DNA of 64,000 nucleotides from Acutalibacteraceae bacterium. GTDB lineage: Bacteria > Bacillota > Clostridia > Oscillospirales > Acutalibacteraceae. The position numbers and the translations under genes were made by a program. Under the pieces are notes generated by a model. The model worked only from the letters and a program-made list of their open reading frames with translations. It was not told the origin of the DNA and made no database searches. Below, piece by piece: positions 25,155-40,395 of this stretch; position 1 is the first letter of the stretch, and each line of letters starts with the position of its first letter. Location of the stretch: positions 20,874-84,873 of the forward strand of contig JAZSIM010000014.1 of NCBI GenBank assembly GCA_045533835.1, given 5' to 3'.

Positions 25155-25161
25155 GTCAATT

Positions 25162-25590
25162 TTATTTCTGTAATTTTTCTTTAAGGTATTCTAAAGCCTT
25201 AGTGTATCCTTCAAGTCCTTTCCCTGCAATCTGCTTTTCGGCATAAAGGGAAACATAGGAGAATTTTCTGAATTCCTCACGGGAATTGATGTCTGAAATG
25301 TGAACCTCAACCGTAGGTATTCCCACAGCCTTTAAAGCGTCAAGAATCGCAACACTCGTATGTGTGTATGCGGCAGGGTTAATTACAATGCCGTCGGTGT
25401 CGGGGTAGGCGGACTGAATTTTATCAACAATAGCTCCCTCGTGGTTTGACTGAAAAATCTCGAAATCAATACCTTCACAAGCCTTTTCTATCATACCGCA
25501 AAGGGTGTTATAGTCCTGTTTTCCGTAAATATCGGGCTCTCTGAGTCCCAGTAAATTCAGATTCGGTCCGTTTATTATAAGAAGCTTCAT
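25162..25590 (-). CDS. aroQ: 3-dehydroquinate dehydratase, type II
   Basis: MKLLIINGPNLNLLGLREPDIYG... Confidence 0.95.
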   Translation of the reverse strand: MKLLIINGPNLNLLGLREPDIYGKQDYNTLCGMIEKACEGIDFEIFQSNHEGAIVDKIQSAYPDTDGIVINPAAYTHTSVAILDALKAVGIPTVEVHISDINSREEFRKFSYVSLYAEKQIAGKGLEGYTKALEYLKEKLQK

Positions 25591-26832
25591 TTACATTCTC
25601 CTTAATTTCTCAAGAATTATTTCTGCGGTTTCCTCTGCGTTTTCACTTACGTCAACCGAAAAATCAGAGAAATCCTCATAAAGGGGAGCTCTTTTTTTAC
25701 AAAGCTCTGCCATATTATTTTTTTGTGATATGGGTCTGCCGTCAATGGGCAGAAGGGAAAGATCCCTTTTCAGCCATATTACCGCGGAATTCTGCTTTAC
25801 TGAGTAGCGGTTTTCTTTTCTTGTAATAATACCGCCGCCCGTAGCAATAACGGCACCCGACATTTTTCCTGCTTCGGTTATCGCTTCTGTTTCAATTTCT
25901 CTGAATCTGTCCTCTCCGTAAAGAGAGAATATTCCGGGAATGGGCATACCCGCCTTTTCTGTGATAATGTCATCAGTATCAATAAATTTTCTTCCGAGCT
26001 TTTTTGCAAGAATTTTGCCGATTGTGGTTTTTCCTGCACCGGGCATTCCGATAAGCACAATATTTTTCGTTTTATTCTCAATTGCACTTATTATTTTTTC
26101 AATTTCACCGTCGGGGATGTGCTCACCCGTAAAAAGCTCAGCCGCTCTTTTTCCCTGAGCCACAAGCATTGAAAGTCCGTTTATGTAAGGTATACCGAGG
26201 CTTTTTGCATCGTATAAAAGCCGTGTCTGAGCAGGATTATATATTAAATCAAGCACTCCTGAGAGCTTCGGAAAAGCCTTCAGGTCTACCGGGCTTTTTC
26301 CCGTATCGGGGTACATTCCCACGGGGGTTGTATTTACAATAACGTCCGTGTCGGAATGCCTTTCTATGTTATCGTAATTGTCCTCTCCGCTTCTCGAGAT
26401 AACAACGATTTCCCTTGCCTTCATATCGGCAAGCACCGCTTTTACTGTAACCGATGCCCCTCCCGAGCCGAGAATAAGCACCTTTTTATCCGTAATCTCA
26501 ATTCCGCTTTTCTTCAGCATATAAGAAAAGCCGTAATAGTCGGTATTGTAGCCGTAAAGACCGTCCGCTTTTTTTATAATCGTGTTGACCGAGCCTATCC
26601 TTTTTGCTTCATCGGAAATATATCCGAGATACGGCATTACGGTTTTTTTATAGGGGATTGTTACATTCAGGGCATCAAGAGGACAGCGTTCAAGAAAAGC
26701 CGCCACCTCATTTTCTTCCATTTCATAAAGCTTATATTCGTAATCTGCAAGAAAGGAGTGGATTTCAGGTGAGAAGCTGTGCCCGAGTCTGCGTCCTATA
26801 AGCCCTGCTCTTAAATTTTCACAATGTATCAT
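25591..26832 (-). CDS. aroE: Shikimate dehydrogenase / shikimate kinase fusion
   Basis: N-terminal LIGRRLGHSFSPEIHS (AroE) and C-terminal NIVLIGMPGAGKTTIGKILAKKLGRKFIDTD (AroK Walker A). The start MIHCEN at 26832 lies 1 nt after the aroC stop. Confidence 0.9.
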   Translation of the reverse strand: MIHCENLRAGLIGRRLGHSFSPEIHSFLADYEYKLYEMEENEVAAFLERCPLDALNVTIPYKKTVMPYLGYISDEAKRIGSVNTIIKKADGLYGYNTDYYGFSYMLKKSGIEITDKKVLILGSGGASVTVKAVLADMKAREIVVISRSGEDNYDNIERHSDTDVIVNTTPVGMYPDTGKSPVDLKAFPKLSGVLDLIYNPAQTRLLYDAKSLGIPYINGLSMLVAQGKRAAELFTGEHIPDGEIEKIISAIENKTKNIVLIGMPGAGKTTIGKILAKKLGRKFIDTDDIITEKAGMPIPGIFSLYGEDRFREIETEAITEAGKMSGAVIATGGGIITRKENRYSVKQNSAVIWLKRDLSLLPIDGRPISQKNNMAELCKKRAPLYEDFSDFSVDVSENAEETAEIILEKLRRM

Positions 26833-26833
26833 A

Positions 26834-28177
26834 TTAGCCGACACTTTCTTCGTCCGTTTCTGCGGACTGATATTTTTTTGAAAGAGCAAGAATTTCCTTG
26901 TAAAGCTCCTCGGTATAGCCGGAGAATTCATCCTTTGAAAGCGCCTTTACTCTTCCGAGAAGCTCATTTTCTCTTTCGGGTACGTACACGGGAAGCCCGT
27001 TTTCCTTTTTATAGCGTGCAATATCTTCCGATACCGCCATTCTTTCACAGAAAAGACGCACGATTTCCTTGTCTATTGCATCAATTTTCTCTCTTGATGC
27101 CTCAAGGGAAACGCTTTTTCCGTCAAGCAGCATATCAAGCACCGCCAGCGCTGCCGATGACTCAATTACGGGTACGGCTCTCGGTACAATACACGGGTCA
27201 TGTCTTCCTTTTACCGTGTATTTGATGTTTTCCTTTGTTTCAAGGTTTACGGTATCCTGCTCCTTCCCTATGGAGGGAGTGGGCTTCAGGGCACACCTGA
27301 AAACCAGGGGCATACCGTTTGTCATTCCGCCGAGAATACCGCCGCAGTTGTTGGTGTATGTTTTTACTGTATCACCGTCAAAATAAAAGCTGTCATTATT
27401 TTCAGAACCGAGAAGCTCTGCACACCTGAAGCCGTTTCCGAATTCAATGGCCTTTACCCCGGGTACGGAGAATACAGCGGATGAAATTCTGCCCTCGGCA
27501 CCTGCAAAAAGATGCTCGCCAAGACCGACGGAAAGCCCCGTTACGACACATTCAATAACACCGCCTACGGAATCAAGCTGTTCCTTAGCCTTTTTTATGA
27601 CAGCCTTCATTTCTTCCCCTGCTGTTTCGTTAATTACGGGGAAGCCGTCAGCAATCCCTTCGTTGCAGTCCGCGGAGAATGGCTTGTCCTTAACACCGCC
27701 GACCGAATATATATGAGCCTTGATTTCAATGCCCTTTTCCCTTAAATACTGAATAGCAAGCGCGCCTGCAACGCAGGTAAGAGCGGTAAGCCTGCCCGAA
27801 AAATGTCCTCCGCCTCTCAGGTCAACAGAGCTTCCGTATTTTACAATTGCAGGGAAATCCGCGTGTGAGGGACGGGGAATTATACCTGCATCGCCGTAGT
27901 CCCCCGAGTGCTGATTCGTGTTATAAATAACGGCTGTTATCCTGCCGCCCGTGGTAGCTCCGTTTTCAACGCCTGACAAAAAAACGGGCTTGTCCGCTTC
28001 CTTTCTTTTGGTGGACCATTCATTCTGTCCCGGGGCGCGTCTTTTCATAAATGCAGAAAGAAGCTCCTCATCAATACGAAGTCCTGCGGGGAAGCCCTCA
28101 AGTGTCATTGTCAGCCTTTCGCCGTGGCTTTCGCCGTCAATATAAAGCTTTATGTTGTTTCCGTAGGGAAAGCTCAT
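26834..28177 (-). CDS. aroC: Chorismate synthase fused to a C-terminal AroQ-class chorismate mutase domain
   Basis: The AroC body runs MSFPYGNNIKLYIDGESHGERL...GRHDPCIVPRAVPV. It is followed by REKIDAIDKEIVRLFCERMAVSEDIARYKKENGLPVYVPERENELL (CM_2-like). Confidence 0.88.
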   Translation of the reverse strand: MSFPYGNNIKLYIDGESHGERLTMTLEGFPAGLRIDEELLSAFMKRRAPGQNEWSTKRKEADKPVFLSGVENGATTGGRITAVIYNTNQHSGDYGDAGIIPRPSHADFPAIVKYGSSVDLRGGGHFSGRLTALTCVAGALAIQYLREKGIEIKAHIYSVGGVKDKPFSADCNEGIADGFPVINETAGEEMKAVIKKAKEQLDSVGGVIECVVTGLSVGLGEHLFAGAEGRISSAVFSVPGVKAIEFGNGFRCAELLGSENNDSFYFDGDTVKTYTNNCGGILGGMTNGMPLVFRCALKPTPSIGKEQDTVNLETKENIKYTVKGRHDPCIVPRAVPVIESSAALAVLDMLLDGKSVSLEASREKIDAIDKEIVRLFCERMAVSEDIARYKKENGLPVYVPERENELLGRVKALSKDEFSGYTEELYKEILALSKKYQSAETDEESVG

Positions 28178-28181
28178 CTTT

Positions 28182-29405
28182 TCACCTTATTTCATCCCAG
28201 AAAAGGGGATAGGATTTTTTTACAGCCCCGGCACCGCTTATCGTTACCGTACCGCTTGTTGAAAATGCAGCCGCAGCCGCACTCATTGCAATTCTGTGGT
28301 CGTTGCAGGAATCAACCTCACCGCCCGTAAGGGGGGAGCCTTCAATAATTATACTGTCATCACGGACGGCAATTTTTCCGCCGAGGTTCTTTATCATATT
28401 ATAAACCGCTTCAATTCTGTCGCTTTCCTTGAAGCGAAGCCTTCCGCAGTTTATAATTTCCGTCTGACCTTTGGCATTTGCCGCAACAACCGACAAAACG
28501 GGTACAAGGTCGGGTATGTCCGCAGCATCAACCGTAATTCCGTGAAGCACGGAGGGGTAAGCAGTTATGCCGTTTTCTGTTATTTCAATATCTGCACCGA
28601 AACCGCGAAGCACGGTAAGGATTTTTTTATCCCCCTGAACGGAGTCTGTTTCAAGCCCCGTAAGTGTGATTGCTTTTCTGCCGATAGCACCTGCAGAAAG
28701 GAAAAATGCGGCATTTGACCAATCTCCACCGGCTTTTATTTCTCCCGGAGAGATAAGGGGAACAGTTTTTGGCACCGTGATTATGTTTTCCGAAAAGCTG
28801 ACATAGCAGCCGAATTTTTTCAGTGCATCAATTGTCATTTCAATATAAGGCAGGCTTTCGGTCTTACCGGTTATTTCAATTCTGCCGCCCGTTTTTGTCA
28901 GCATAAATATAAGGCCCGAAATAAACTGCGAGGATACGTTGCCTGCTATTGAAAAATCGGTTTTTTTGCATCTGCCCGAAACCTTTATACGGCTGTCCTC
29001 TTTTTCTATGGTGACTCCTGCCCCTTCAAGCTCCTCCTTTAAGGGGGAAAGAGGTCTGTCGCCCAGGCGCCCCTCTGTAACAAATACTGCAGATTTGCCG
29101 TAAAGAGATGAAAGGGGCAGTAAAAAGCGGAGCGTTGAGCCCGATTCCTTAGGATGCAGCACGGGATTTTCAGGTACGTCCGCGATGGGCTTTACCGTAA
29201 AGATACCGTCTGAAAAGGAAATTTCCGCACCGAGGGACTTAAGACAGTTAACCGTTGCTTCAATATCCTCATTTGTTCCGTCGCAGTGTACTTTTGTCAT
29301 TTTGTCGGAAAGAGCCGCACATATAAGAAGACGGTGCACCTCTGATTTTGAAGCAGGTATTTTTATGATGTCCTCCGTTTTCGGAGAAAAAAGCGTTTTT
29401 ACCAT
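28182..29405 (-). CDS. aroA: 3-phosphoshikimate 1-carboxyvinyltransferase (EPSP synthase)
   Basis: KIPASKSEVHRLLICAAL..., LRFKESDR. The start MVKTLF at 29405 lies 1 nt after the aroB stop. Confidence 0.9.
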   Translation of the reverse strand: MVKTLFSPKTEDIIKIPASKSEVHRLLICAALSDKMTKVHCDGTNEDIEATVNCLKSLGAEISFSDGIFTVKPIADVPENPVLHPKESGSTLRFLLPLSSLYGKSAVFVTEGRLGDRPLSPLKEELEGAGVTIEKEDSRIKVSGRCKKTDFSIAGNVSSQFISGLIFMLTKTGGRIEITGKTESLPYIEMTIDALKKFGCYVSFSENIITVPKTVPLISPGEIKAGGDWSNAAFFLSAGAIGRKAITLTGLETDSVQGDKKILTVLRGFGADIEITENGITAYPSVLHGITVDAADIPDLVPVLSVVAANAKGQTEIINCGRLRFKESDRIEAVYNMIKNLGGKIAVRDDSIIIEGSPLTGGEVDSCNDHRIAMSAAAAAFSTSGTVTISGAGAVKKSYPLFWDEIR

Positions 29406-29406
29406 A

Positions 29407-30453
29407 TCAGAAGCCCTCCGCAAGAAAACCGGCAAGCTCTGCTACGGGAGTCGGCTTAAGTATACAGCTGCCCGCATACCGGGGGATTACAAGAGTGATT
29501 TCTTCACCCCGGCGTTTTTTGTCGGAAAGGGCAGCTCGTGCTAGCTCCCCGGGAGTAAAAACGGGTACTGACGGCAGGGAAAACTTATCAAGAAGAGAAA
29601 GAAGAGCTCCGAGAGCCGCTTCTTCGCAAAGCCCCTTTTTTATTGCCGCCCTTGTCATAATAACCATACCTATTGCCACCGCGGAGCCGTGGGAAACCGT
29701 ATATTCCGAAAGCACCTCAATGCCGTGGGCAGGTGTATGTCCGAAATTCAGAAGCTGTCTTATTCCGTTATCTCTTTCGTCAACGGCAACAATATCACGC
29801 TTTGCCGTTACGGAGATTTCAATAATTTCATTTATATCATAATCCCCCGAAAGCAGCTCTAAAAGCACGGGGGTGTTTATCATTCCGTATTTTATGATCT
29901 CAGCCATACCGTCATTGAAGATTTTTTCAGGCAGCGTAGACAGCGTGTCGGGGTCAATAATCACAAGTGACGGCTGATAAAAGGCTCCTGCAAGATTTTT
30001 ACCGTTTTTAAGATCAACGGCAGTTTTTCCGCCGACTGAGGAATCTGTCATGGAGAGAAGGGTAGTCGGGATGTTTACATATTTTATTCCTCTTAAAAAC
30101 GTAGCGGCGGCAAAGCCCGTAAGATCGCCCGTCACACCGCCCCCGAGGGCTATGAGAATATCTGAACGGGTTACGTGCTTTTCTGCAAGGAATTCCCATA
30201 AGGACACGAGCGTATCTGTGCATTTTCTGTCTTCGCCTGCTTCAAAAACAAAGGAAATGACGCTGAAGCCCTCCTTTTTCAGCGTAGCTTCAAGCACATT
30301 GCCGTAAAGCGGGAATACGTTTGAATCTGAAACGATTACCGCAGTATTTCCCTTTGAAATATCTCTTATGAGCCTTCCCGATTCTCCGAGAAGACCGTTG
30401 CCTATCAGGACATCATAACCTGCAGATGCCTCAATGTGTACCTTTTTCATCAT
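29407..30453 (-). CDS. aroB: 3-dehydroquinate synthase
   Basis: ALGGGVTGDLTGFAAATFLRGIKYVNIPTTLLSMTDSSVGGKTAV. Confidence 0.9.
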   Translation of the reverse strand: MMKKVHIEASAGYDVLIGNGLLGESGRLIRDISKGNTAVIVSDSNVFPLYGNVLEATLKKEGFSVISFVFEAGEDRKCTDTLVSLWEFLAEKHVTRSDILIALGGGVTGDLTGFAAATFLRGIKYVNIPTTLLSMTDSSVGGKTAVDLKNGKNLAGAFYQPSLVIIDPDTLSTLPEKIFNDGMAEIIKYGMINTPVLLELLSGDYDINEIIEISVTAKRDIVAVDERDNGIRQLLNFGHTPAHGIEVLSEYTVSHGSAVAIGMVIMTRAAIKKGLCEEAALGALLSLLDKFSLPSVPVFTPGELARAALSDKKRRGEEITLVIPRYAGSCILKPTPVAELAGFLAEGF

Positions 30454-31302
30454 TTATCCCTTCTTCTGTGAGCTTCCGTCTATCTGCTCCTTCATAAGCC
30501 TTCCGTCCCTGAGAAGCTTACAAAGCGTATCGCTGTCATTATTTTCGAGGGCGCTTTTGTATTCGCCCAGAGAGCTTATTATGAAGTTAAGCTCTCTTAT
30601 AAGATTATCGGAGTTTTCAGTAAAAAGCTCTGTCCACATATTTTCGTTGAGCCACGCAACTCTTGTCATATCCTTGTATGAGCCTGCCGAGAAGCCTCCG
30701 TGATTTTTTGCCGTTTCACTTTTTATATATGCGTTTGAAACGATGTGAGCAAGCTGTGAAGTAAAGGCTATCATTTCATCGTGCTTTTCGGCGGTTGTCA
30801 CGGAGATACTTCCGAAGCCCATAGGGGAGATTATATTTTTTATATTTTCAAGCAGTCCTATATCATCAAACACCGGGGGAACAATTACCATAGGTGCGCC
30901 CCTGAAGAGATCCTTTCTCGAATACTTTATGCCCGAAAACTGCGTGCCTGCCATAGGATGGGCACCCACAAAGTTAAAGCCGTATTCCTCTGCCAGGCTG
31001 AAGCCCGTTTTGCAGATTTCTCTTTTTGTACCGCAAAGGTCAAGCACAAAGGCATCCTTTTTTATGAACGGTGCATTTTCCTTCAGATATTCCTCTGCCG
31101 CTTTCGGGTACAGGGCAATAAATATCACGTCACAGGAGCTTACGGCTTCTGAAGTCAGCTCCCCGTCAATTATTCCCGACAGCATTGCATATCCGAGCGT
31201 GCCCTTATCCGTATCCCTGCCGAGCACCCTGCAGTCGGCAGCCTTATATGCACGGGCAGCCGAGCCGCCTATAAGTCCTAAGCCTACAACACCGACAGTC
31301 AT
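30454..31302 (-). CDS. tyrA: Prephenate dehydrogenase
   Basis: MTVGVVGLGLIGGSAARAYK...GAHPMAG. The start shares one base with the upstream stop (TAATG). Confidence 0.85.
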   Translation of the reverse strand: MTVGVVGLGLIGGSAARAYKAADCRVLGRDTDKGTLGYAMLSGIIDGELTSEAVSSCDVIFIALYPKAAEEYLKENAPFIKKDAFVLDLCGTKREICKTGFSLAEEYGFNFVGAHPMAGTQFSGIKYSRKDLFRGAPMVIVPPVFDDIGLLENIKNIISPMGFGSISVTTAEKHDEMIAFTSQLAHIVSNAYIKSETAKNHGGFSAGSYKDMTRVAWLNENMWTELFTENSDNLIRELNFIISSLGEYKSALENNDSDTLCKLLRDGRLMKEQIDGSSQKKG

Positions 31303-32315
31303 TATAATGCCTCCCTTAATGCGCTTCTTACAACGCTTACGGATTTCATCATATCTGAAAACTGCTCGGGTGTCAGTGACTGAGCTCCGTCACACAGAGC
31401 GTGTATGGGGTCAGAATGCACCTCTGTCATAAGTCCGTCCGCGCCTGCTGCAACAGCTGCCAATGCCATGCTTTTTACATATTTTGAGGAGCCCGTTGCG
31501 TGGGAGGGGTCAATAATAACGGGTAAGTGCGTCAGCTCCTTAAGAACGGGAACGGCAGATAAGTCCAGACAGTTTCTGGTGTATTGGCTGTCAAAGGTCC
31601 TTATTCCTCTTTCGCAGAGCATTACGTTTTCATTTCCGCCAGCCATAATGTATTCTGCAGACATAAGCCATTCTTTTATTGTACTCGAAAGTCCGCGTTT
31701 TAGCAAGATAGGTTTGTCGGTTTTTCCCAGTTCTTTTAACAGTTCAAAGTTCTGCATATTCCGTGCGCCTACCTGAATCACGTCAACATCCTGGAAAAGG
31801 GGAAGGTGGTGTGCATCCATAATTTCCGTAACTATCGGCAGTCCCGTTTCCTTTTTTGCCTTCAGAAGAAGCTCTATACCCTCGGCTTTCAGCCCCTGAA
31901 AATCATAAGGAGAGGTTCTGGGCTTGAAGGCTCCGCCTCTGAGCATATTACAGCCCGCCGTTTTTACGGCTCTTGCAATCCCCGTCAGCTGATCCTCGGA
32001 TTCAACGGAGCAGGGGCCTGCAATAACTGCAAAATTACCGCCGCCCACCATTACACCGCTGCAGTTGATTATACTGTCATCGGGATGAAATTTTCTGTTT
32101 GCGCTTTTGAAGGGGTCGGAAACGCGTCTTACCGCCTCAACAATGCTGAGGCTTCCGATAAGGTCTGCATCAAGCCTTGTGGTGTCACCTATAAGACCGA
32201 CAACCGTCTGGAATTCGCCCTTTGAAATGTGAACGTCAAGTCCGAAGCCTCTGAGCCATTCCGTAAAATTGCCGAGCTGCTCCTGTGTTGTTCCCTGTTT
32301 TAATACTGCAATCAT
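31302..32315 (-). CDS. aroF: 3-deoxy-7-phosphoheptulonate (DAHP) synthase, type I-beta, with an N-terminal ferredoxin-like regulatory domain
   Basis: MIAVLKQGTTQEQLGNFTEWLRGFGLDVHISKGEFQTVVGLIGD is followed by a KDO8PS/DAHPS-like barrel (IAGPCSVES, LRGGAFKPRTSPY). The RBS GGTGAGGT lies upstream. Confidence 0.9.
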   Translation of the reverse strand: MIAVLKQGTTQEQLGNFTEWLRGFGLDVHISKGEFQTVVGLIGDTTRLDADLIGSLSIVEAVRRVSDPFKSANRKFHPDDSIINCSGVMVGGGNFAVIAGPCSVESEDQLTGIARAVKTAGCNMLRGGAFKPRTSPYDFQGLKAEGIELLLKAKKETGLPIVTEIMDAHHLPLFQDVDVIQVGARNMQNFELLKELGKTDKPILLKRGLSSTIKEWLMSAEYIMAGGNENVMLCERGIRTFDSQYTRNCLDLSAVPVLKELTHLPVIIDPSHATGSSKYVKSMALAAVAAGADGLMTEVHSDPIHALCDGAQSLTPEQFSDMMKSVSVVRSALREAL

Positions 32316-32346
32316 TTTTATTACCTCACCTTTAAGATATTCTGCG

Positions 32347-32382
32347 AAAAAAATTAAATGCACCCGATTTTCACCGGGTGCA
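32347..32382 (-). terminator. Leader (attenuator) terminator upstream of aroF
   Basis: The minus-strand RNA reads UGCACCCG-GUGAAAAU-CGGGUGCA followed by UUUAAUUUUUUU. It ends about 30 nt before the aroF ATG. Confidence 0.6.
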
Positions 32383-32429
32383 CTGAAATAACCTTTATAC
32401 GTTACTTTGATTTGCAGACAGCGAAAATC

Positions 32430-32489
32430 TTACCTTTTTTCTTCTGAAAAAAAGTAATAATAATATGCTGCTGCAAAAAGCTTGGTCAT
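32430..32489 (-). CDS. Leader peptide MTKLFAAAYYYYFFSEEKR (19 aa), attenuation-type
   Basis: ATG at 32489 and TAA at 32432..32430. GGAAGGA lies 9 nt upstream. It contains four consecutive Tyr codons and two Phe codons. It sits between the promoter and the leader terminator of the aro/tyrA operon. Confidence 0.55.
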   Translation of the reverse strand: MTKLFAAAYYYYFFSEEKR

Positions 32490-32522
32490 AAAACTTAATC
32501 CTTCCGTTTGCTTGTTGAGGTC

Positions 32523-32551
32523 AGTTTAACACTTTATATCATTAAAGTCAA
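32523..32551 (-). promoter_or_regulatory. SigmaA-type promoter candidate of the aro operon
   Basis: On the minus strand: TTGACT, 17 nt, then TAAACT. Confidence 0.55.
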
Positions 32552-32655
32552 TACTTTTTTTCAGTTTAAGAAAAAATATCAAAAATGTAATCAATGTTGA
32601 TATTTTTTTTGCAGATGTTAAAATAAACATACAATAAAGAAAGGCGGTGTTTTTT

Positions 32656-32901
32656 ATGTATGAAATAATAAATACTCTTTTTTGTGCAATACCGATTTTA
32701 GTCATTGTAGTATTCGTTGTTCTTCTGTTTGTTTACAGAAAGAGAAAGAAGGAAGCACCGGAAGCGGCTTCCTGTAAGAATTCAGCAGAGCTTAATTCAC
32801 TGAAAACCGCAATAAAGGTGTTCGGTATACTTTCCGCTGTGTTTGCGGGTGTTGTCGTAATCCTCGGTGTGTTGTTCTGTATGTTTGTGGCATATATGTG
32901 A
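32656..32901 (+). CDS. Small two-TM membrane protein, hypothetical
   Basis: MYEIINTLFCAIPILVIVVFVVLLFVYRKRKK...VFGILSAVFAGVVVILGVLFCMFVAYM. The start could also be the GTG at 32647. Confidence 0.45.
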   Translation: MYEIINTLFCAIPILVIVVFVVLLFVYRKRKKEAPEAASCKNSAELNSLKTAIKVFGILSAVFAGVVVILGVLFCMFVAYM

Positions 32902-32911
32902 GGGAAAGATA

Positions 32912-33052
32912 ATGAGAGAGAAATATTTCAGATTCCTTCTGATTCTTGTTCTTGTGCTTTGCATTACCGTTACCGTAGTACACGTTGCCTACGACGTATA
33001 TGCTTACGGCCATTGCTCAATAATACAGTTTATTGCAAAGGAGCTGTGGTAG
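32912..33052 (+). CDS. Small single-TM protein, hypothetical (46 aa)
   Basis: MREKYFRFLLILVLVLCITVTVVHVAY... follows GAGGGAAAG. The stop lies 1 nt before the next ATG. Confidence 0.35.
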   Translation: MREKYFRFLLILVLVLCITVTVVHVAYDVYAYGHCSIIQFIAKELW

Positions 33053-33053
33053 A

Positions 33054-34040
33054 ATGAAGCTTTTAAAACAGCTGTCGGTGCTTCTCGGTATTATTCTGCT
33101 TTTTACTCTGTTCAACGTGGCTGTATACTTTTCGGTTACTGTACGTCTTTCAAATAATTTCAGCGATGCAACTCAGGCGAAAATGATTGACGTCGGTGAA
33201 TTTCTTCCTTTTAGGGAGGAGTCCGACCTTGCACGTACGGAAACGGACTTTACTCTTGAAGGGGAGCTTCCCGTGCTTGATGGTGCGGCGGCGCTTGTTC
33301 CGGTATATGCCTCTGTGATTAATGCGGTTTATCCCGAGTCCTCTGTAACGTATATCGGCGGTGAGTTCTGTGATGATAATTTTTACGGTGAGAATTTTGC
33401 TCCGGACAGTAAAATGCAGTATAAGAATACCGTAAGGGGATATACCGCTGTTGTTGACGGAGATACGGATATTCTTTTCTGTGCCGCTCCTTCTGCGGAG
33501 CAGAAAAAGTATGCGGAGGATAAGGGTGTTGAACTTGAATATGTCCCCGTAGGACTTGAAGCCTTCGTTTTCTTTGTCAATAAGAATAATCCCGTTGAGA
33601 ATCTTACTGCAGAGCAGATAAGGGATATTTACGGCGGTACTTATAAAAACTGGAAGGATGTTGGCGGTGCCAACCGTGTAATCAATCCCGTAACACGTAT
33701 GGAGGGAAGCGGAAGCCAGTCCGCAATGAATTCCTTTATGGGAGACAGAAAAATTGCCCTGAAATCTCCGCTGTCAATAACCGGTGCTTCAATAGGCTTT
33801 TCCTTCAGATACTATATGGATGGTATCGTAGATAACGGTGAGGTTAAAATGCTGTCATTGAACGGCGTTTATCCGTCAGCGGAAAATATCAGAAACGGTA
33901 CTTATCCCGTAATTGCAGAATTTTATGCAATTTACCGTAAGGATAACGAAAACGAAAACATTAAAAAGCTCATAGACTGGATTCTTTCAGATGAGGGACA
34001 GTCCCTTATTGAGGAAAGCGGCTATGTGAGAATTAAATAA
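33054..34040 (+). CDS. PstS-family (PBP_like_2) substrate-binding domain protein with an N-terminal TM anchor
   Basis: NLTAEQIRDIYGGTYKNWKDVGGANRVINPVTRMEGSGSQSAMNSF is a PstS-like signature. Confidence 0.7.
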   Translation: MKLLKQLSVLLGIILLFTLFNVAVYFSVTVRLSNNFSDATQAKMIDVGEFLPFREESDLARTETDFTLEGELPVLDGAAALVPVYASVINAVYPESSVTYIGGEFCDDNFYGENFAPDSKMQYKNTVRGYTAVVDGDTDILFCAAPSAEQKKYAEDKGVELEYVPVGLEAFVFFVNKNNPVENLTAEQIRDIYGGTYKNWKDVGGANRVINPVTRMEGSGSQSAMNSFMGDRKIALKSPLSITGASIGFSFRYYMDGIVDNGEVKMLSLNGVYPSAENIRNGTYPVIAEFYAIYRKDNENENIKKLIDWILSDEGQSLIEESGYVRIK

Positions 34041-34045
34041 AAAGA

Positions 34046-34075
34046 TACCGCAGTCTGTGAAAAGAGGCTGCGGTA
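34046..34075. terminator. Hairpin between convergent genes
   Basis: TACCGCAG-14 nt-CTGCGGTA, with only weak T runs. Confidence 0.4.
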
Positions 34076-34080
34076 AAGTT

Positions 34081-35643
34081 TTATTCGTTATTATTTACTC
34101 CTACAATTGAGAGAAGCTCTGTTTTTGTTTTATCCTCATCGTAGGTGTTGCAGCCGACGCGGAGAATATCTCCCTCCTGCAGGTAGCCGCTGTGTCTTAC
34201 ACCGCCCTCGGGGTGGGTAACGGACAGCACGAAAAGCTTGTGAGGCCAGAAGATGTCCTTGAGCTCCTTGCCCTCTGCAAAGGAATCCTTGTTTACCGTA
34301 ACATTAAATTCAATATATTTACTCTTTTTGCCCTCATGCTCCTTATGTATGCGTCTTTCAAGGGCAAATTCGTTTATTGATTCGGAATGAGAAAGCACGG
34401 CAATCATATAGGCTACGCCTGCTGCAATAATAATGGCGGAAAGGTTTGTTGAACAGCCCAGGGCCTCAAGTGCAAAAACAACTGCCGTGAAGGGGATATT
34501 CATAATACCCGACATTCCTGCAACAAGTCCCAGTACCACAACAAGGGTGTAATAATATTCGGGAATAAGCCCCGTAAGAATCAGCACGTTTGAAAGCACG
34601 GATGCCGTAAGTGCCGATACTGCGAGAGTAGGAAGAAACAGTCCGCCCGTAAGCCCTGCCGAATTTGCGGAAAGTGTAAGAATCGTACGGAGAATTATCG
34701 TTACTATAATTATGAGCGTAAGAGAATGGTGGGTAAAAAGCTCCTCCGTCAGGTGGTGTCCCGTTGAAATGAAGGTATAGGAATACATACCTGCGGCAAG
34801 CGTCATAATTAGGATTAAAAATATCTTTATCCCGCTGTCCGTCTTTTTAAGTGTTGTGTTGAAGAGCTTGTTTATTCTTCTGAAGGTATGCAGGAAGACA
34901 ACAGAGAAAATGCCTAATGTGATGCCCGTCAGCAGGGGAATCCACATTTCGCTTACTGAAAGCGGGGGGATTGAAATGTCGTGGAAAATTTCGGGAGAAA
35001 TACCGAAAAGGGGACAGAGTAGCTGAGTTACAACCCTGCAGGCTGCTACGGATACAATGGTGATGATAATTATTACAGGGGAGAGCCTTCTGTGCATTTC
35101 CTCAATTATGAAAATAATGCCCGTCATAGGAGCGCCCGTTGCCGCCGCAAAGCCGGCGGAAGCACCGCCCGTTATGCTGTAACGGCTCCAAACCTCTCCC
35201 TTTTTACCGAGTGCTTTTGTTACGGATTCACCAAGAGAAGCGCCCATAAGCACGCAGGGACCTTCATTACCGAGGGGTACGCCGAGAAGAAAATTGAGAA
35301 GTGAAAGAGTAAAGGTGCCCACAAGGGAGCGAAGCCACTTGAAGGAGAAAATGCCTCCCACAAGCCCCATTGTGTCGCTGATTCCTCCGCCCTTTACGGA
35401 GGGGTATTTTTTATAAATGAAGCGGAGTGCAAGGGCAATAAGCGCCGGCACGGGAACGGCAGCAGCAATAAATACGGGCTTTTCCCTAAGAAAATTATAA
35501 ATGCTCTCCGAAAAGGAAATGGCATAGAAGGCAAGGAAGCGGTACAGGGTAACGACAGCTCCCGTCAATGCTCCTGTTGAAATACCGATTACAATAACCG
35601 GCACCATCAGCCTTAAGGTATGTAATTGTTTCAGTCTGTTCAT
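34081..35643 (-). CDS. ClC-family voltage-gated chloride channel with a C-terminal TrkA-C-like domain
   Basis: GNEGPCVLMGASLG and GAPMTGIIFIIEE selectivity-filter motifs are present. It has about 10-12 TM helices. Confidence 0.88.
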   Translation of the reverse strand: MNRLKQLHTLRLMVPVIVIGISTGALTGAVVTLYRFLAFYAISFSESIYNFLREKPVFIAAAVPVPALIALALRFIYKKYPSVKGGGISDTMGLVGGIFSFKWLRSLVGTFTLSLLNFLLGVPLGNEGPCVLMGASLGESVTKALGKKGEVWSRYSITGGASAGFAAATGAPMTGIIFIIEEMHRRLSPVIIIITIVSVAACRVVTQLLCPLFGISPEIFHDISIPPLSVSEMWIPLLTGITLGIFSVVFLHTFRRINKLFNTTLKKTDSGIKIFLILIMTLAAGMYSYTFISTGHHLTEELFTHHSLTLIIIVTIILRTILTLSANSAGLTGGLFLPTLAVSALTASVLSNVLILTGLIPEYYYTLVVVLGLVAGMSGIMNIPFTAVVFALEALGCSTNLSAIIIAAGVAYMIAVLSHSESINEFALERRIHKEHEGKKSKYIEFNVTVNKDSFAEGKELKDIFWPHKLFVLSVTHPEGGVRHSGYLQEGDILRVGCNTYDEDKTKTELLSIVGVNNNE

Positions 35644-35695
35644 AAGGATTCCTCCTTTATGCGAGTGAAAAGTGAAGAGTGAATAGGTAATAAGT

Positions 35696-35730
35696 AAAAA
35701 AACGACAGGTATTAAACCTGTCGTTTTTTT
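35696..35730 (-). terminator. Terminator after the tRNA-Ser pair
   Basis: AAAAAAACGACAGG-5 nt-CCTGTCGTTTTTTT, symmetric. Confidence 0.6.
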
Positions 35731-35823
35731 GGCGGAGCAGGAGAGACTCGAACTCTCGCGCCGGGGTTTAGCCGACCTACGCCCTTAGCAGGGGCGCCTC
35801 GTCACCAACTTGAGTACTGCTCC
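35730..35823 (-). tRNA. tRNA-Ser (anticodon GCU)
   Basis: The reverse complement is GGAGCAGTACTCAAGTTGGTGACGAGGCGCCCCTGCTAAGGGCG...GTTCGAGTCTCTCCTGCTCCGCCA. It shows a 7-bp acceptor stem, a CUGCUAA anticodon loop, a long variable arm, GTTCGAGTC and an encoded CCA. Confidence 0.85.
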
Positions 35824-35853
35824 GTATGGTAAACGTGATTATATTAAAAAAAA

Positions 35854-35944
35854 TGGCGGAGAGAGTGGGATTCGAACCCACGGTACCCGTAAGAGTACGA
35901 CGGTTTTCAAGACCGTTCCGTTATGACCGCTTCGGTATCTCTCC
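35854..35944 (-). tRNA. tRNA-Ser (anticodon UGA)
   Basis: The reverse complement is GGAGAGATACCGAAGCGGTCATAACGGAACGGTCTTGAAAACCGTCG...GGTTCGAATCCCACTCTCTCCGCCA. It shows a CUUGAAA anticodon loop, a long variable arm and an encoded CCA. Confidence 0.85.
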
Positions 35945-35958
35945 AATTAGCATTTGAT

Positions 35959-35987
35959 ATATTACCACAATCCGTTTTCCTTGTCAA
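35959..35987 (-). promoter_or_regulatory. SigmaA-type promoter candidate of the tRNA-Ser pair
   Basis: On the minus strand: TTGACA, 17 nt, then TAATAT with a TG extension, about 15 nt upstream of the first tRNA. Confidence 0.6.
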
Positions 35988-36076
35988 GTCCTTTTCTCAA
36001 GTTATTTTTTTAAGTCGCGAAGAAAAAAATATTTGCAATTTCTTAATATTTTATACACAAATGGCTTACGTTGTAT

Positions 36077-36105
36077 TTGACTATGTTTTTCCTTTGTGAT
36101 AAAAT
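36077..36105 (+). promoter_or_regulatory. SigmaA-type promoter candidate
   Basis: TTGACT, 17 nt, then TAAAAT with a TG extension. Confidence 0.55.
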
Positions 36106-36143
36106 ATATGTAATAATTATTACTTCCGGAAGGAGAAATTTAT

Positions 36144-37814
36144 ATGAAAAAGCTTATTGCAATAATTCTTTGCATCACGCTTGTATTTGCCGTGACTGCT
36201 CCTGCGGTATCAGCAGCAGACGAAGAAAGACTGCCTACGGTTTATATCCGCGGCAACGGAGAGAAGCTTTATAACGCAGACGGCACTCCCCTTAATGCCG
36301 ATTTTGCCGGCATCAGCCTTGGCGGCGGTGAAGAAGGCGAAGAGGACGATTCCGTCGAAAAAATTGTTGAGGCTGTTGTCAACATTCTCAAGCCCTTTGT
36401 TTTAGAGGGAATGCTTTTTGATAATTGGGATAATTACGGCAGGGCTATTTATGATGAGCTTGCTCCCCTGTTCAAGGATTCGGGGCTTGATGAAAACGGC
36501 AATGCCAAGAACGGCACCGGTGTTTCAACGGAGGAGCTTGAGGCCTCTACCGCACAGTCCAAGACTTCTGAACACTATATCTACAATCACGACTATAACT
36601 TTGTATATGACTGGCGTCTTTCTCCCTATGACCACGTAGACAGACTTCATCAGTTTATTACGGATATTATCAGCGCTACGGGAAAGTCACAGGTGAACAT
36701 ATATGCAAGATGCATCGGCGGCAGTCTGCTTATGGCTTACCTTGAAAAGTACGGTCATCTCGGTCATGTAAAGAACGTAATGTTTGTTGAGGTTCTTTCA
36801 AACGGCTCAACTGTTATCTCAAAATCATTCAGCGGCAAGGTTGAGTTTGATGATATACTTCTTGAAAAATATCTCGGTCAGCTGGATTACTGTGGTACAA
36901 ACGGTGTCGGTGTCGGTTTTGAGTTTCCTGCGCTTCTCAGAGAAATCGTATTCAAAACAATGGATTTCTTTAATCAGGTGAACGCTACAAATATGGTTCT
37001 CGGCAGTGTTGAAAAGCTTTATGAAAGACTTTATGAGGCTCTTATTCCTGCTATTCTGCATGCAACAGGACTTGCAACACAGGTAAATTTCTGGACCTGT
37101 GTCAAGGAAGAGGATATGAATGATGCACTGAATCTTGTGTTCGGACAGCCCGGTTCAGAGCTTCGCATAAAGTATGCCGGACTCATCGAAAAAATTCTTT
37201 ATTACAGAGAGCATATTTCCTCTGACCTTAAGGGCTATTATGACAGCCTCAGAGAAAAGGGTATTCACTTCGGCTTTACCGCAAATTACGGCCTCCTCAA
37301 TGCTCCCTTCACGGAAGATGCCGATCTGCAGTCGGATGCACTTGTAAGTCTTGAGGATGCGACATTCGGCGCAACTGCGGCAAAAATAGGAAAAACACTT
37401 TCCGATGAATATATTGCTGCACGTATTGAAAAGGGAAAGGGCAAATATATTTCAGCGGATAAGGTTGTAGACCTTTCAACTGCATACTCTCCCGAAACAA
37501 CCTGGGTATTCAAGAATGCTCACCACGATATTCTTGCTCCGTGTATGGATGTAATCCGCAGCTTTCTCAACGGCACCGGTGAAACTGTTGACAGTGTAAG
37601 CAACGGTGTCTGCTTTATGATTTATAATGAAGAAGCAAAAATTATGGAGCCTATGACGGCAGATAACTGCGGCGACCTTTCATTTATGAAAATCGGCATA
37701 GAGGAGCCTACAATCGGCTCTGCATTCAAGGCATTTGTTGATTTCTGTAAAATGTTCTTCAAGCTTATCGGAATGCTTTTCCGCGGTGAGCTTGACCTTG
37801 GAAGCCTTTTTTGA
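36144..37814 (+). CDS. Secreted alpha/beta-hydrolase-like protein (LCAT/lipase-like)
   Basis: Signal peptide MKKLIAIILCITLVFAVTAPAVSAADEE. An FVYDWRLSPYD motif (the YDWR of LCAT-like lipases). A nucleophile-elbow-like VNIYARCIGGSL. Confidence 0.55.
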   Translation: MKKLIAIILCITLVFAVTAPAVSAADEERLPTVYIRGNGEKLYNADGTPLNADFAGISLGGGEEGEEDDSVEKIVEAVVNILKPFVLEGMLFDNWDNYGRAIYDELAPLFKDSGLDENGNAKNGTGVSTEELEASTAQSKTSEHYIYNHDYNFVYDWRLSPYDHVDRLHQFITDIISATGKSQVNIYARCIGGSLLMAYLEKYGHLGHVKNVMFVEVLSNGSTVISKSFSGKVEFDDILLEKYLGQLDYCGTNGVGVGFEFPALLREIVFKTMDFFNQVNATNMVLGSVEKLYERLYEALIPAILHATGLATQVNFWTCVKEEDMNDALNLVFGQPGSELRIKYAGLIEKILYYREHISSDLKGYYDSLREKGIHFGFTANYGLLNAPFTEDADLQSDALVSLEDATFGATAAKIGKTLSDEYIAARIEKGKGKYISADKVVDLSTAYSPETTWVFKNAHHDILAPCMDVIRSFLNGTGETVDSVSNGVCFMIYNEEAKIMEPMTADNCGDLSFMKIGIEEPTIGSAFKAFVDFCKMFFKLIGMLFRGELDLGSLF

Positions 37815-37838
37815 ATAAGCTCAGCTTGTAGCTTTTTA

Positions 37839-37875
37839 CTCCCGGAAGGAAAATCTCCTTCCGGGAGCTTTTTTT
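37839..37875 (+). terminator. Rho-independent terminator
   Basis: CTCCCGGAAGGA-AAATC-TCCTTCCGGGAG followed by CTTTTTTT. Confidence 0.75.
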
Positions 37876-37939
37876 AGGTTTCCTGCAAATACAAAAGGGA
37901 CTGCACAAGCATACGCTTTTACAGTCCCGAGGGTATCTT

Positions 37940-38222
37940 TTATTCAATTGATGTTGCGGTAAGATATGCGGCTTTTGTTGCATCTGCAATTTTTCCGACC
38001 TTTTTTGCGTCGCCGATGGCTGTTACGTCAAAGCCTGCTGCTGAAAGCTCCTTTGCAAGCTTATTTTCGGATTTTGAACCGAGTGCAAGAACCACTTTTT
38101 TCGCAGGGAATTTCTCTTGTCTTCTTTGTCCTTACGTTTTCGGTCACAATAAAGCCGTTATTGACCTCAGTCAGCTTTTCGCCCGTAAAAATTTCTGTAA
38201 ACAGTCTTCCCGTTACAGCGTA
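37940..38222 (-). pseudogene. C-terminal relic of a FadH/OYE-type flavin oxidoreductase paralog, frameshifted and 5'-truncated
   Basis: The minus strand reads ...TGEKLTEVNNGFIVTENVRTKKTREIPCEK, then a frameshift in the run GAAAAAAG, then VVLALGSKSENKLAKELSAAGFDVTAIGDAKKVGKIADATKAAYLTATSIE*. Compare the C-terminus of 38335..40395 (...[19 protein letters not shown]...[12 protein letters not shown]...). Confidence 0.5.
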
Positions 38223-38272
38223 AAATATCAAAAAATAATTGACAAAAAATTGTCACAGTATTTCAAATTACC

Positions 38273-38301
38273 TTGACATAATAATCTGTTTTTTATATAC
38301 T
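38273..38301 (+). promoter_or_regulatory. SigmaA-type promoter candidate of the oxidoreductase gene
   Basis: TTGACA, 17 nt, then TATACT. Confidence 0.55.
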
Positions 38302-38334
38302 ATTTAATTGGAAAAAAGAAAGGACGGGTTATTT

Positions 38335-40395
38335 ATGGACAACAAGTATGATGCTTTATTTACCCCCTGGAAGATAGGCAATTGTGAAATCAAAAACAGA
38401 ATTGTTATGTGTCCCATGGGCGGTACCTCACTTTTCGGCTGGTTTGAGCTTGGCGGCTGCCATTTTGACAAGGAAGCAGCAAAGCTTTTCATTGAAAGAG
38501 CCAACAATAACGTAGGTCTTATCATTCCCGGTATTGCACCTCTTCGCGATACCTTCTGGGGCAAGTGGCTCTGGCAGAATCCCAAGATGTTTGAGGACCT
38601 CAAGGTATTTATGGATGAAATCCATAAGACAGGCGCAAAGCTTTTCGTTCAGCTTACAGCAGGTATGGGCAGAAGCTGGGCTATCACCGAGCTTATTGCA
38701 CCTCTTCACAAGAACAAGATTACAAGGGCTATCATTAAGCCTATTATTGATACCTCACACGAGCTTGCTTCTCCCAGTCCCCAGCCCTCACGCTGGGCAC
38801 ACGATATTATCTGCCCCGAAATGACAAAGGAGCAGATTCACGAAATCATTGAAGCATTCGCAAAGACCGCAAAGCTCTGCCGTGATGCAGGCGTTGACGG
38901 TGTTGAGGTTCACGCTGTTCACGAGGGCTATCTTCTTGACCAGTTCGCAATTGAATTTTTCAATAAGAGAAGCGACGAATACGGCGGAAGCTTTGAAAAC
39001 AGATACCGCTTTGCAGCAGAGGTTGTAAAGGCTATCAAGTGTGCCTGCGGTGACGATTATCCCGTATCTCTTCGTTACTCCGTTGAATCCAAGATGAAGG
39101 GCTTCTGCGAGGGTGCAATGCCCGGTGAGGACTATGTTGAGGTCGGCAGAAATATGGAGGAATCCGAAAGAGCTGCAAAGTACCTTCAGGACGCAGGTTA
39201 TGATATGCTCAATGCCGACAACGGCACCTATGACTCCTGGTACTGGGCTCATCCCCCCATGTATATGCCCGAAAACTGCAACCTTGAGGATGTTGCACAC
39301 ATCAAGAAGTTTGTTGACATTCCCGTTGTATGCGCAGGCCGTATGGATGCTGCTACAGCTTCAGAGGCTATCGCTGAGGGCAAGATTGACGGTGTAGGCG
39401 TTGCACGTCAGTTCCTTGTTGACCCCGAATGGATCACAAAGATTATTGAGGACAGACTTGAGGACATCAAGCCCTGTATCTGCTGTCACAGCGGCTGCTT
39501 CAACTTCTCCTCCTCAAAGGGTCACGCAAATACTCAGGATCTCTTCGATACAATGGGTCTTGCACGCTGTGCTCTTAACCCCAGGACCATGCAGTCCAAA
39601 AAGTATAAGATTGAAAAGGCTAAGAAGCAGAAGAACATTGCTGTTATCGGCGGCGGTATCGGCGGTATGGAGGCAGCTATCGTTCTCGCTCAGAGAGGCC
39701 ATAAGGTTACTCTTTACGAAAAGACCGACAAGCTTGGCGGTGTATTCATTGCTGCTGCCGCTCCCTCCTTCAAGGAGAAGGACCGTGACCTTATTGCATG
39801 GTACAGACGCGAAATCACAAGATATCCCATCGAGATCAAGTTCAATACCGAGGTAAAGAACATTGAGGCTCTCGGTGCTGATGAGGTTATCGTGGCAACA
39901 GGTGCAGTTGCAAACAAGATTCCTGTTCCCGGTGCAGATAAGGCTATCGAAGCATGCGAATACCTTCTCGGTGAAAAGACCGTAGGTGAAAACGTTGTTA
40001 TTGTCGGCGGCGGTCTTACAGGCTGTGAAATTGCTTACGACTTATTCCTTCAGGGCAAGAAGCCCGTTATCGTTGAAATGCAGGATGACCTTATCACCAC
40101 TCCCGGTGTTGCACTTGCAAACACAAGCTTCCTTCGTGACTGCTTCAAGACAAATAAGGTTCCCGTATATCTCGAAACAAAGACAACAGAAATCCGTGAC
40201 AATGGTGTTACCGTTATGGATAAGAACGGCAAGAAGACAGATATCCCCTGCGATAACGTAATTCTTTCCGTAGGCTACAGACCCGCTCCCGTAGCAGAAA
40301 AGAGCAAGAAGGTTCACGTAATCGGTGACGCTTGCAAGGTAGGAAATCTCCGTACCGTTATCTGGCAGGCATGGGACGTTGCAATGAAGCTGTAA
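38335..40395 (+). CDS. NADH:flavin oxidoreductase (OYE domain) fused to an FAD/NAD(P)-binding domain, 2,4-dienoyl-CoA reductase (FadH) family
   Basis: [29 protein letters not shown] is an OYE N-terminus. A CxxCxxxC-like cluster region (CICCHSGC) is present. [14 protein letters not shown] and [12 protein letters not shown] are dinucleotide folds. Confidence 0.88.

Follow-up and report, generated by a model that had tools for sequence, protein, structure and literature searches.

The window analyzed here, a 64-kb stretch of Clostridial DNA (contig JAZSIM010000014.1 of an Acutalibacteraceae bacterium), carries on its minus strand a short leader upstream of an aromatic biosynthesis operon that begins with aroF and tyrA. 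We consider it very probable that this leader is a ribosome-mediated attenuator of the trpL/pheL type, which would read the charging of tRNA-Tyr and/or tRNA-Phe, and it is almost certainly a real switch rather than an artefact. The core of the original prediction, made from the window sequence, was that Tyr and Phe codons of a leader peptide steer the choice between a terminator and an antiterminator in front of the aro/tyrA genes; this was supported by all computational tests. The elements of the leader, the energies of its helices, their conservation and covariation in relatives, and the dependence of the computed fold on ribosome position are directly established. All leader elements were read directly off the minus strand, and coordinates are window positions.

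32546..32551, minus strand: -35 hexamer TTGACT (sequence and promoter scan)
32523..32531, minus strand: extended -10 element TGT-TAAACT, with TAAACT at 32528-32523 and TG at 32531-32530 (sequence and promoter scan)
32499..32505, minus strand: Shine-Dalgarno (SD) sequence GGAAGGA, 9 nt to the leader ATG at 32489 (sequence)
32430..32489, minus strand: leader open reading frame (ORF) MTKLFAAAYYYYFFSEEKR plus TAA stop (sequence; homologous ORFs in relatives)
32448..32465, minus strand: regulatory codons TAT TAT TAT TAC TTT TTT, four Tyr and two Phe (sequence)
32467..32477, minus strand: segment 1, UUUGCAGCAGC, 5′ strand of the anti-antiterminator, covered by a ribosome with a Tyr codon in its A site
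32427..32461, minus strand: inner hairpin within the 1:2 loop, AUUAUUACUUUUUUUC / GAAAAAAGGUAAGAU (minimum free energy, MFE, folds)
32411..32429, minus strand: segment 2, GAUUUUCGCUGUCUGCAAA, whose 3′ part pairs with segment 1 and whose 5′ part plus UGCA pairs with segment 3
32386..32407, minus strand: small spacer hairpin AAGUAAC...GUUAUUU at the antiterminator apex, compatible with both states
32366..32382, minus strand: segment 3, UGCACCCGGUGAAAAUC, comprising the terminator 5′ arm, the loop and the first base of the 3′ arm; antiterminator 3′ strand
32357..32384, minus strand: intrinsic terminator hairpin (3:4), 10-12 bp with a GAAA loop; its 24-nt core has -17.1 kcal/mol
32347..32358, minus strand: terminator U-tract TTTAATTTTTTT (sequence and terminator scan)

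The promoter, predicted as TTGACT-17-TAAACT at 32551..32523, can be read in the sequence with its 17-nt spacer and is also listed by the promoter scan (9/12 matches, TG present). GGAAGGA, its 9-nt spacing, the ATG at 32489 and the 19-codon Tyr/Phe ORF were likewise all found in the minus-strand sequence as first read, with one correction: the distance from the -10 hexamer to the start of GGAAGGA is 17 nt instead of about 25 nt. The ORF has 19 sense codons (ATG ACC AAG CTT TTT GCA GCA GCA TAT TAT TAT TAC TTT TTT TCA GAA GAA AAA AGG), translates to MTKLFAAAYYYYFFSEEKR and ends at the stop TAA at 32432-32430. A divergent promoter-like site lies at 32597-32624 on the plus strand (TTGATA, 16 nt, TAAAAT with TG; 10/12 matches) and points to a small ORF (32647-32901) and a PBP-like gene (33033-34040).

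Segment 1, UUUGCAGCAGC, pairs with GCUGUCUGCAAA (32422-32411) over 11 bp with one bulge, which reproduces the pairing originally proposed, at -14.2 kcal/mol. The inner hairpin lengthens this 1:2 pairing into a single long hairpin of -24.3 kcal/mol; UUACUUU (the last Tyr-Phe codons) and the stop-containing AAAGUAAG pair with one another and are near-invariant in the family alignment. The inner hairpin (32427-32461) could also serve as a pause hairpin.

Segment 2 constitutes the conserved core of the family, roughly AAGRGURAUUUKUGCUGC, and forms the antiterminator with segment 3. The predicted 2:3 pairing of 11 bp including 2 G:U was recovered (GAUUUUCGCUG at 32429-32419 with CGGUGAAAAUC at 32376-32366, -11.9 kcal/mol), and the antiterminator proved larger than described: it also has UGCA(32416-32413):UGCA(32382-32379) and an apical hairpin at 32407-32386, a spacer hairpin that one relative (L003) retains through ACAU/AUGU in place of UAAC/GUUA. 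The composite antiterminator hairpin has -22.0 kcal/mol versus -17.1 for the terminator and spans nearly all of the terminator 5′ arm; the two are mutually exclusive, since 2:3 overlaps both the 5′ arm and the loop of the terminator. The three helix energies (-14.2, -11.9 and -17.1 kcal/mol) are of the same order as those of classical attenuators.

The terminator has the hairpin, the U-tract and the distance of about 30 nt to aroF that had been claimed for it (31 nt from the T-run to the aroF ATG at 32315); what needed correcting is the hairpin itself, as the stem can be extended to 10-12 bp with a GAAA loop. It is the sole terminator-like site within 32000-33100 in the terminator scan. The whole leader folds at z = -6.46 relative to dinucleotide shuffles. 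In the full-length MFE structure computed with no ribosome, the SD/AUG region of the leader (32501-32487) pairs over 13 bp with the spacer preceding the terminator (32399-32385), a pairing that might stop re-initiation on terminated leader transcripts.

Conservation and covariation of the leader

To follow the leader through related genomes, we used 80 orthologous aroF loci from species-representative genomes, with 80 metagenome aroF loci serving as a replication set (ORF counts there refer to 71 loci), and scored short, ATG-started ORFs within 400 nt upstream of aroF that contain a consecutive run of Y, F or W. The metagenome search returned no near-identical relatives, the best matches having 76-77% amino acid identity. 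Runs of at least three aromatic residues were found in 62/80 genome loci versus 6 in the reverse complement and 7.6 in dinucleotide shuffles, and runs of at least four ([YFW]{4,}) in 53/80 versus 1 and 1.75, respectively; the longer run was replicated in 37/71 metagenome loci versus 1 in the control. Aromatic-run leader ORFs occur in 47/71 metagenome loci overall, and with genomes and metagenomes taken together the device recurs in about 100 related loci. An SD-like 4-mer precedes 74 of the 78 non-redundant leader ATGs, compared with 12% of the other ATGs in the same regions. The conservation check suggested in the original prediction thus came out in its favor: the ORF, the SD sequence and the aromatic run are all kept in orthologs, far above the shuffle and reverse-complement controls.

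The peptides, 15 to about 45 amino acids long, share little besides M..(L/I)FA(A/T)(A/E) followed by 4-10 alternating Tyr and Phe, with Trp in a few. Cultured carriers include Hominicoprocola fusiformis CLA-AA-H269 (L011, leader MKSIFVFAYYYYFTMDS) and Pseudoflavonifractor sp. AF19-9AC (L041). Loci without a leader mostly have aroF abutting a co-directional upstream gene, or belong to metagenome-assembled genomes (MAGs) labelled Bacteroidaceae; degenerate or GTG/TTG-start versions of the leader are seen in L071 and L079.

Several variants of the leader were observed. Trp codons are added to the Tyr/Phe run in L088, L089, L095, L101 and L109 (e.g., AYFYYFWFTRQ and YYFYFWF), and from their codons these lineages may read all three aromatic amino acids. 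A long-form subfamily (L016, L024, L027, L038, L041, L042, L062 and others) has an ORF that continues through segment 2, with a recurring C-terminal ..SDxCCK or ..VLFAANNG... One locus labelled Alloprevotella sp. (L049) and others labelled Bacteroidaceae (L022, L035, L039, L043 and L069) encode DAHP synthases 66-68% identical to the Clostridial query; L049 carries a Clostridial-type leader (MFRYFFTRTIS and the conserved segment 2) and the Bacteroidaceae-labelled loci carry none. The presence of such a leader on a sequence binned as Bacteroidota suggests mis-binning or horizontal transfer.

An intrinsic terminator lies between the leader stop codon and aroF in 61/61 leaders of the genome set (60 loci and the window) and in 44/47 metagenome leaders, at a distance from the aroF ATG of 14-146 nt, mostly 20-60 nt. 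In the family alignment 93.8% of the terminator is paired, and 10 out of 10 pairs have double compensatory changes. A covariance model of helix 1:2 plus the terminator, with 27 non-redundant leaders as seed, matched the window once, at 32350-32486 on the minus strand with 68.5 bits, and had no second match within the 64 kb. Plus-strand matches numbered 52 among the 80 genome loci and 43 among the 80 from metagenomes; nearly all sit immediately upstream of aroF, and roughly half belong to leaders that had not been part of the seed. Relatives that retain the RNA element but have lost the ORF would, by its own terms, have contradicted the original prediction; 50 of the 52 genome matches retain an ATG-started ORF with an aromatic run and L079 keeps one with a GTG/TTG start, so that a motif kept with the ORF lost is not the pattern found. 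In L080, a weak match (1137-1273; 31 bits, E = 0.002) is separated from the downstream aroF by about 300 nt that include an 83-amino acid ORF, and it comes with no aromatic leader ORF; either a degenerated copy or a spurious match may explain it.

Searches against Rfam returned no match within 32340-32560 (cmscan at E <= 5 over 20000-40000). No T-box was matched in the leader, in the whole 64-kb window at the gathering threshold or in 20 leaderless orthologous loci, and the proteobacterial Phe, Trp, His, Leu and Thr leader families of Rfam matched neither the leader at E <= 5 nor the window at the gathering threshold. Membership in a known Rfam leader, T-box or riboswitch family was therefore rejected.

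Covariation of the alternative helices was assessed in an alignment-free manner before any alignment was used, because the helix registers differ between subfamilies; this difference in the 1:2 and 2:3 registers is also why RNAalifold on the MAFFT alignment recovers only the terminator. The duplex energy of each segment 2 was calculated with its own segment 1 or terminator 5′ half and with those of other leaders. Cognate pairs are more stable for both helices: -14.5 versus -11.15 kcal/mol for 1:2 (z = -9.9) and -13.6 versus -9.8 kcal/mol for 2:3 (z = -11.0). For 31 non-redundant terminators the values are z = -5.8 (1:2) and z = -7.4 (2:3), and the gain over shuffles of the same composition is -4.6 and -5.0 kcal/mol, respectively (p ~1e-10). 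With a fixed register in the MAFFT alignment (A1), 65.5% of cells are paired versus 59.5 +/- 1.2 (0/500), double-sided changes number 36 versus 23 (0/500), and every slid register reaches at most 50%.

For 2:3, a further test was anchored on the motifs ..UUUGUG and CACAG.., with seven variable flanking positions and permuted partners as the control. The flanks are canonical in 68.3% versus 57.2 +/- 2.9 (0/2000), with swaps that include AAU:UUA, AGC:UCG and UUA:AAU, and the length of the U-run in segment 2 tracks that of the A-run in the terminator loop (UUUU:AAAA in the window, UUUUUU:AAAAAA in L007). This covariation indicates that the loop is under selection to complement segment 2, which is sensible only if 2:3 forms. 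Both alternative pairings, 1:2 and 2:3, covary across relatives, as the earlier analysis had proposed to check.

Folding as a function of ribosome position

Because full-length equilibrium folds cannot discriminate between the states, we replaced them with a transcript ending before the terminator 3′ arm as a kinetic proxy, computed its partition function with a ribosome footprint masked, and determined what fraction of the 5′ arm and loop of the terminator pairs with upstream sequence. In the window leader this fraction is 0.30 with no ribosome, 0.75-0.81 with the ribosome stalled in the YYYYFF run and 0.32 with the ribosome at the stop codon. Over the 61 leaders the values are 0.47, 0.63 and 0.40, respectively, and the difference between stall and stop is +0.23 (44 positive, 6 negative; p = 6.5e-8), compared with -0.02 to +0.02 in eight rounds of shuffling the upstream sequence. 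The metagenome leaders replicate this, with a difference of +0.27 (38 positive, 4 negative; p = 5e-7). Under the stall mask, 71 of 78 non-redundant leaders form an antiterminator helix of 5 bp or more (median 12 bp), and in all 71 of these the terminator forms fully when no ribosome is present. The predicted dependence of the alternative fold on the ribosome was thus reproduced in silico and is absent in shuffles.

The geometry of the window leader fits the same scheme. With a Tyr codon in its A site, the ribosome masks 32477-32451 and with it the whole of segment 1; once at the stop codon, it masks 32447-32421 and so hides 9 of the 11 nt that make up the antiterminator 5′ strand. In 27/50 leaders the stop codon is provided by a conserved UAA/UAG within "GUAAG" that precedes the segment 2 core by 5-11 nt; another 19/50 have an ORF that extends across segment 2, with its stop past that segment. 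In the folding model, both placements would let an unstalled ribosome block 2:3.

From these data we infer that the ORF is translated and that ribosomes stall in it, as well as the order in which the RNA folds kinetically and how the cell responds physiologically; the proposed course of events is the following. Transcription would start a few bases past the TAAACT -10 box. With no ribosome on the leader, or after its departure, segment 1 and the aromatic codons would fold with segment 2 into the long hairpin; with segment 2 thus engaged, the terminator 3:4 would form and RNA polymerase would stop at 32347. When Tyr and Phe are plentiful, the ribosome would reach the TAA at 32432-32430 and cover 32447-32421, leaving segment 3 free, so that the terminator would form and the operon would be off. 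When tRNA-Tyr or tRNA-Phe is poorly charged, the ribosome would stall on YYYYFF, cover segment 1 and free segment 2, which once transcribed would pair with the terminator 5′ arm and loop (GAUUUUCGCUG..UGCA with UGCA..CGGUGAAAAUC). The antiterminator would then block the terminator, and aroF-tyrA-aroB-aroA-aroC/CM-aroE/K-aroQ would be transcribed.

Several observations weigh against this scheme. In equilibrium folds of the full-length leader the terminator survives every ribosome mask, which means that the switch can be only kinetic: the antiterminator must form before the terminator 3′ arm exists. Uncoupled "runaway" transcription has been reported for Bacillus subtilis and proposed to be widespread (reviewed in PMC7858274); where transcription outruns translation, the attenuator presumably needs a pause of RNA polymerase in the leader, for example at the 1:2 hairpin (-24.3 kcal/mol). 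The assumed footprint, from -15 to +11 around the A site, is taken from Escherichia coli, and about 10% of the leaders are opposite in sign in the masking test. For 2:3 in a single register, support from the model-based alignment, which was not fitted to 2:3, is modest (64.3% versus 61.5 +/- 1.2; 10/500), a consequence of varying terminator loop lengths. Finally, a ribosome that stalls no earlier than the last Phe codon leaves segment 1 uncovered in the full-length fold. The Tyr codons may for this reason carry most of the signal in the window leader, which would fit tyrA as the second gene of the operon.

Among the alternatives, a structured non-coding switch (a riboswitch, a protein- or tRNA-binding element, or a T-box-like element), with the ORF as a by-product of U/A-rich helix strands, is very improbable. 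Parts of the ORF are indeed constrained as RNA: the codons of "F-A-A" are segment 1, and UUACUUU pairs with AAAGUAA; moreover, candidate aromatic-responsive riboswitch-like elements have been proposed upstream of aroFBC-tyrA in Enterococcus (PMC4448216). A by-product would, however, not be expected to have a correctly spaced SD sequence and ATG in 74/78 leaders against a 12% background, nor an in-frame run made only of T[AT][TC] codons at roughly 30-fold over controls. The length of the ORF and the position of its stop also track segment 2, the change in fold depends specifically on where the ribosome stands, neither a T-box nor any other Rfam match was found (leader, window and leaderless loci), and beyond the helices there is no large conserved core resembling a ligand pocket.

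We give an equally small chance to control exerted mainly on translation or mRNA stability, by sequestration of the aroF ribosome-binding site (RBS) or by coupling, with the hairpin and U-run acting as a leaky terminator or processing site. The ability of 32501-32487 to pair with 32399-32385 means that further long-range pairings are possible. The terminator, however, ends 31 nt upstream of the aroF ATG and excludes the aroF RBS, likewise in relatives, and its loop and 5′ arm covary with segment 2, as expected only if termination is the regulated step.

Less probable again is a TnaC-like nascent-chain arrest peptide, which would sense free Tyr or Phe in the ribosome tunnel rather than tRNA charging. 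Aromatic-rich nascent peptides can interact with the ribosome exit tunnel, and the design of the element is clearly translation-dependent; yet the sequence outside the aromatic run is unconserved, with lengths of 15 to about 45 amino acids, and a stall induced by the ligand would turn on biosynthesis at high amino acid supply, the reverse of what such an operon needs. The geometry, too, puts the stall site where stalling frees the antiterminator. Chance, the least probable of all, would invoke the TAT/TTT codons and weak hairpins that AT-rich DNA yields to explain a fortuitous short ORF and complementary stretches in an AT-rich intergenic region, and on the comparative sequence data it is already refuted by the fold z of -6.46, an ORF in about 100 loci versus 1-2 expected, the covariation of three helices and covariance-model matches that lie upstream of aroF and at no other place in the flanking DNA.

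The regulated operon and its surroundings

The genes behind the leader were assigned with Pfam:

25162..32315, minus strand: regulated operon of seven genes
31302-32315, minus strand: aroF, DAHP synthase with an N-terminal ferredoxin-like regulatory (FXD) domain
30454-31302, minus strand: tyrA, prephenate dehydrogenase
29407-30453, minus strand: aroB, DHQ synthase
28182-29435, minus strand: aroA, EPSP synthase
26834-28177, minus strand: aroC-CM fusion, chorismate synthase with a C-terminal type II chorismate mutase
25591-26931, minus strand: aroE-aroK fusion, shikimate dehydrogenase with a C-terminal shikimate kinase
25162-25590, minus strand: aroQ, type II dehydroquinase

The operon thus contains the complete common (shikimate) pathway and the Tyr branch, and Pfam confirms the content originally assigned to it (DAHP synthase, prephenate dehydrogenase, the shikimate pathway and chorismate mutase). 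The listed start of aroE-aroK overlaps aroC-CM by about 100 nt, so the gene probably begins further downstream than listed. The most similar DAHP synthases (93-94% identity) are from MAGs labelled Acutalibacteraceae (Clostridia, Bacillota), and the adjacency of aroF and tyrA is kept in 123 out of 160 related loci. The Tyr share of the leaders is 0.48 where tyrA follows aroF and 0.38 otherwise (p = 0.017, uncorrected for phylogeny), a weak trend that we do not rely on.

Elsewhere in the window, a match to the Gut-1 RNA (Rfam RF01706) was found at 14052-14133 on the minus strand, with 56.5 bits versus a gathering score of 50; this RNA, initially reported from gut metagenomes, fits a gut Clostridial origin for the window. 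A pair of neighbouring tRNA genes, each with a long variable arm, lies at 35733-35823 and 35857-35944 on the minus strand; both look like tRNA-Ser from the anticodon loops in the cmscan alignment (GCU and UGA, respectively). The window contains no convincing second leader-peptide attenuator, defined as a short ORF with a codon run, an SD sequence and a terminator.

Relation to known attenuators

With the pheL-pheA and trpL-trp leaders of E. coli and the Gammaproteobacteria, the Clostridial element shares a short ORF with a run of cognate codons, the 1:2/2:3/3:4 arrangement of segments, the proposed logic in which a stall at the regulatory codons frees segment 2 and a ribosome at the stop masks it, and an intrinsic terminator just ahead of the first structural gene. 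It differs from them in lacking sequence or structure homology, no Rfam leader family having matched, in its mixed Tyr and Phe codons as opposed to those of a single amino acid, in controlling the common shikimate pathway and tyrA rather than a terminal branch, in an antiterminator 3′ strand formed by the distal 5′ arm and the whole terminator loop, and in its host, a Clostridium (Bacillota).

The closest functional analogue with experimental support is the aroR leader upstream of aroF in Corynebacterium glutamicum, which contains F-Y-F and at which, in the summary of Neshat et al. 2014 given in PMC11802643, stalling enhances transcription; the same summary reports a response to limitation for Phe, not for Tyr. 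Both leaders place Phe and Tyr codons before an operon starting with DAHP synthase, whereas aroR is actinobacterial, with only three aromatic codons compared with 4-10, plus a conserved segment 2 core, in the Clostridial leaders; we see no evidence of homology.

The closest precedent in Bacillota-related lineages is uORFC-13-1 (Brewer et al. 2021; PMC8632094), a predicted upstream ORF of 24 sequences from Acholeplasma and unassigned environmental DNA that always precedes aroF. It is described with a promoter, RBS, AUG, a Phe-coding U-run ("at least one Phe") and an adjacent intrinsic terminator, and its authors propose an attenuator based on ribosome speed (PMC8632094). All of the described features are present in the window leader; the motif is not in Rfam, and its description has neither a Tyr run nor an antiterminator model.

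Leader-peptide attenuators of ilv-leu operons have been reported in Listeria and Staphylococcus aureus (PMC5864092, PMC5794164), and His leaders have been documented or predicted in bacilli, relatives of Clostridioides difficile and Erysipelotrichales (PMC2965389, PMC9413887). These belong to the same mechanistic class and phylum, but serve other amino acids and operons in narrower taxa and have no sequence relation to the element described here. The original description of a ribosome-mediated attenuator as unusual for Firmicutes is overstated given that ilv-leu, his and Acholeplasma aroF leaders are already documented or predicted. T-box and TRAP systems, which usually regulate aromatic and aminoacyl-tRNA genes in Firmicutes, share the input (tRNA charging or amino acid level) and the output (terminator versus antiterminator), whereas the window leader has no specifier loop, T-box sequence or (G/U)AG repeats, and the sensor would be the translating ribosome.

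No description of a Clostridial Tyr/Phe aro leader was found in the literature searched, the coverage of which excluded subscription-only papers, and the attenuator appears to be previously undescribed for this group. The element is a new, widespread Clostridial family of a known mechanistic class, not a new mechanism. Whether all of these leaders form a single homologous RNA family with the AAGRGURAUUUKUGCUGC core, acting as the main aro regulator in several orders of gut Clostridia by joint sensing of Tyr and Phe, we regard as evenly balanced. Such a family would have recruited the terminator loop into the antiterminator, would also sense Trp in a few lineages, and would span, by the depositors' labels, Oscillospiraceae, Ruminococcaceae, Acutalibacteraceae, Lachnospiraceae and Anaerovoracaceae.

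With this finding, the shikimate/tyrosine operon of gut Clostridia gains a regulator that recurs in about 100 loci. These abundant and poorly studied bacteria make and use up aromatic amino acids and the metabolites derived from them. It is a broad, aromatic-specific addition to the few leader-peptide attenuators of the Firmicutes, where T-boxes, TRAP and riboswitches count as the norm. Instead of being passed over or called hypothetical proteins, short ORFs of this kind deserve annotation as leader peptides, and the covariance model defines the family for that purpose; the element could also act as a Tyr/Phe-responsive part for engineering these bacteria. As the mechanism needs a ribosome close behind RNA polymerase, these leaders offer a test bed for coupling and leader pausing in Clostridia, a question raised by the B. 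subtilis work on runaway transcription (reviewed in PMC7858274). If the leaders do form a single family, ribosomes would keep pace with RNA polymerase in the leaders of these Firmicutes, despite the runaway transcription of B. subtilis.

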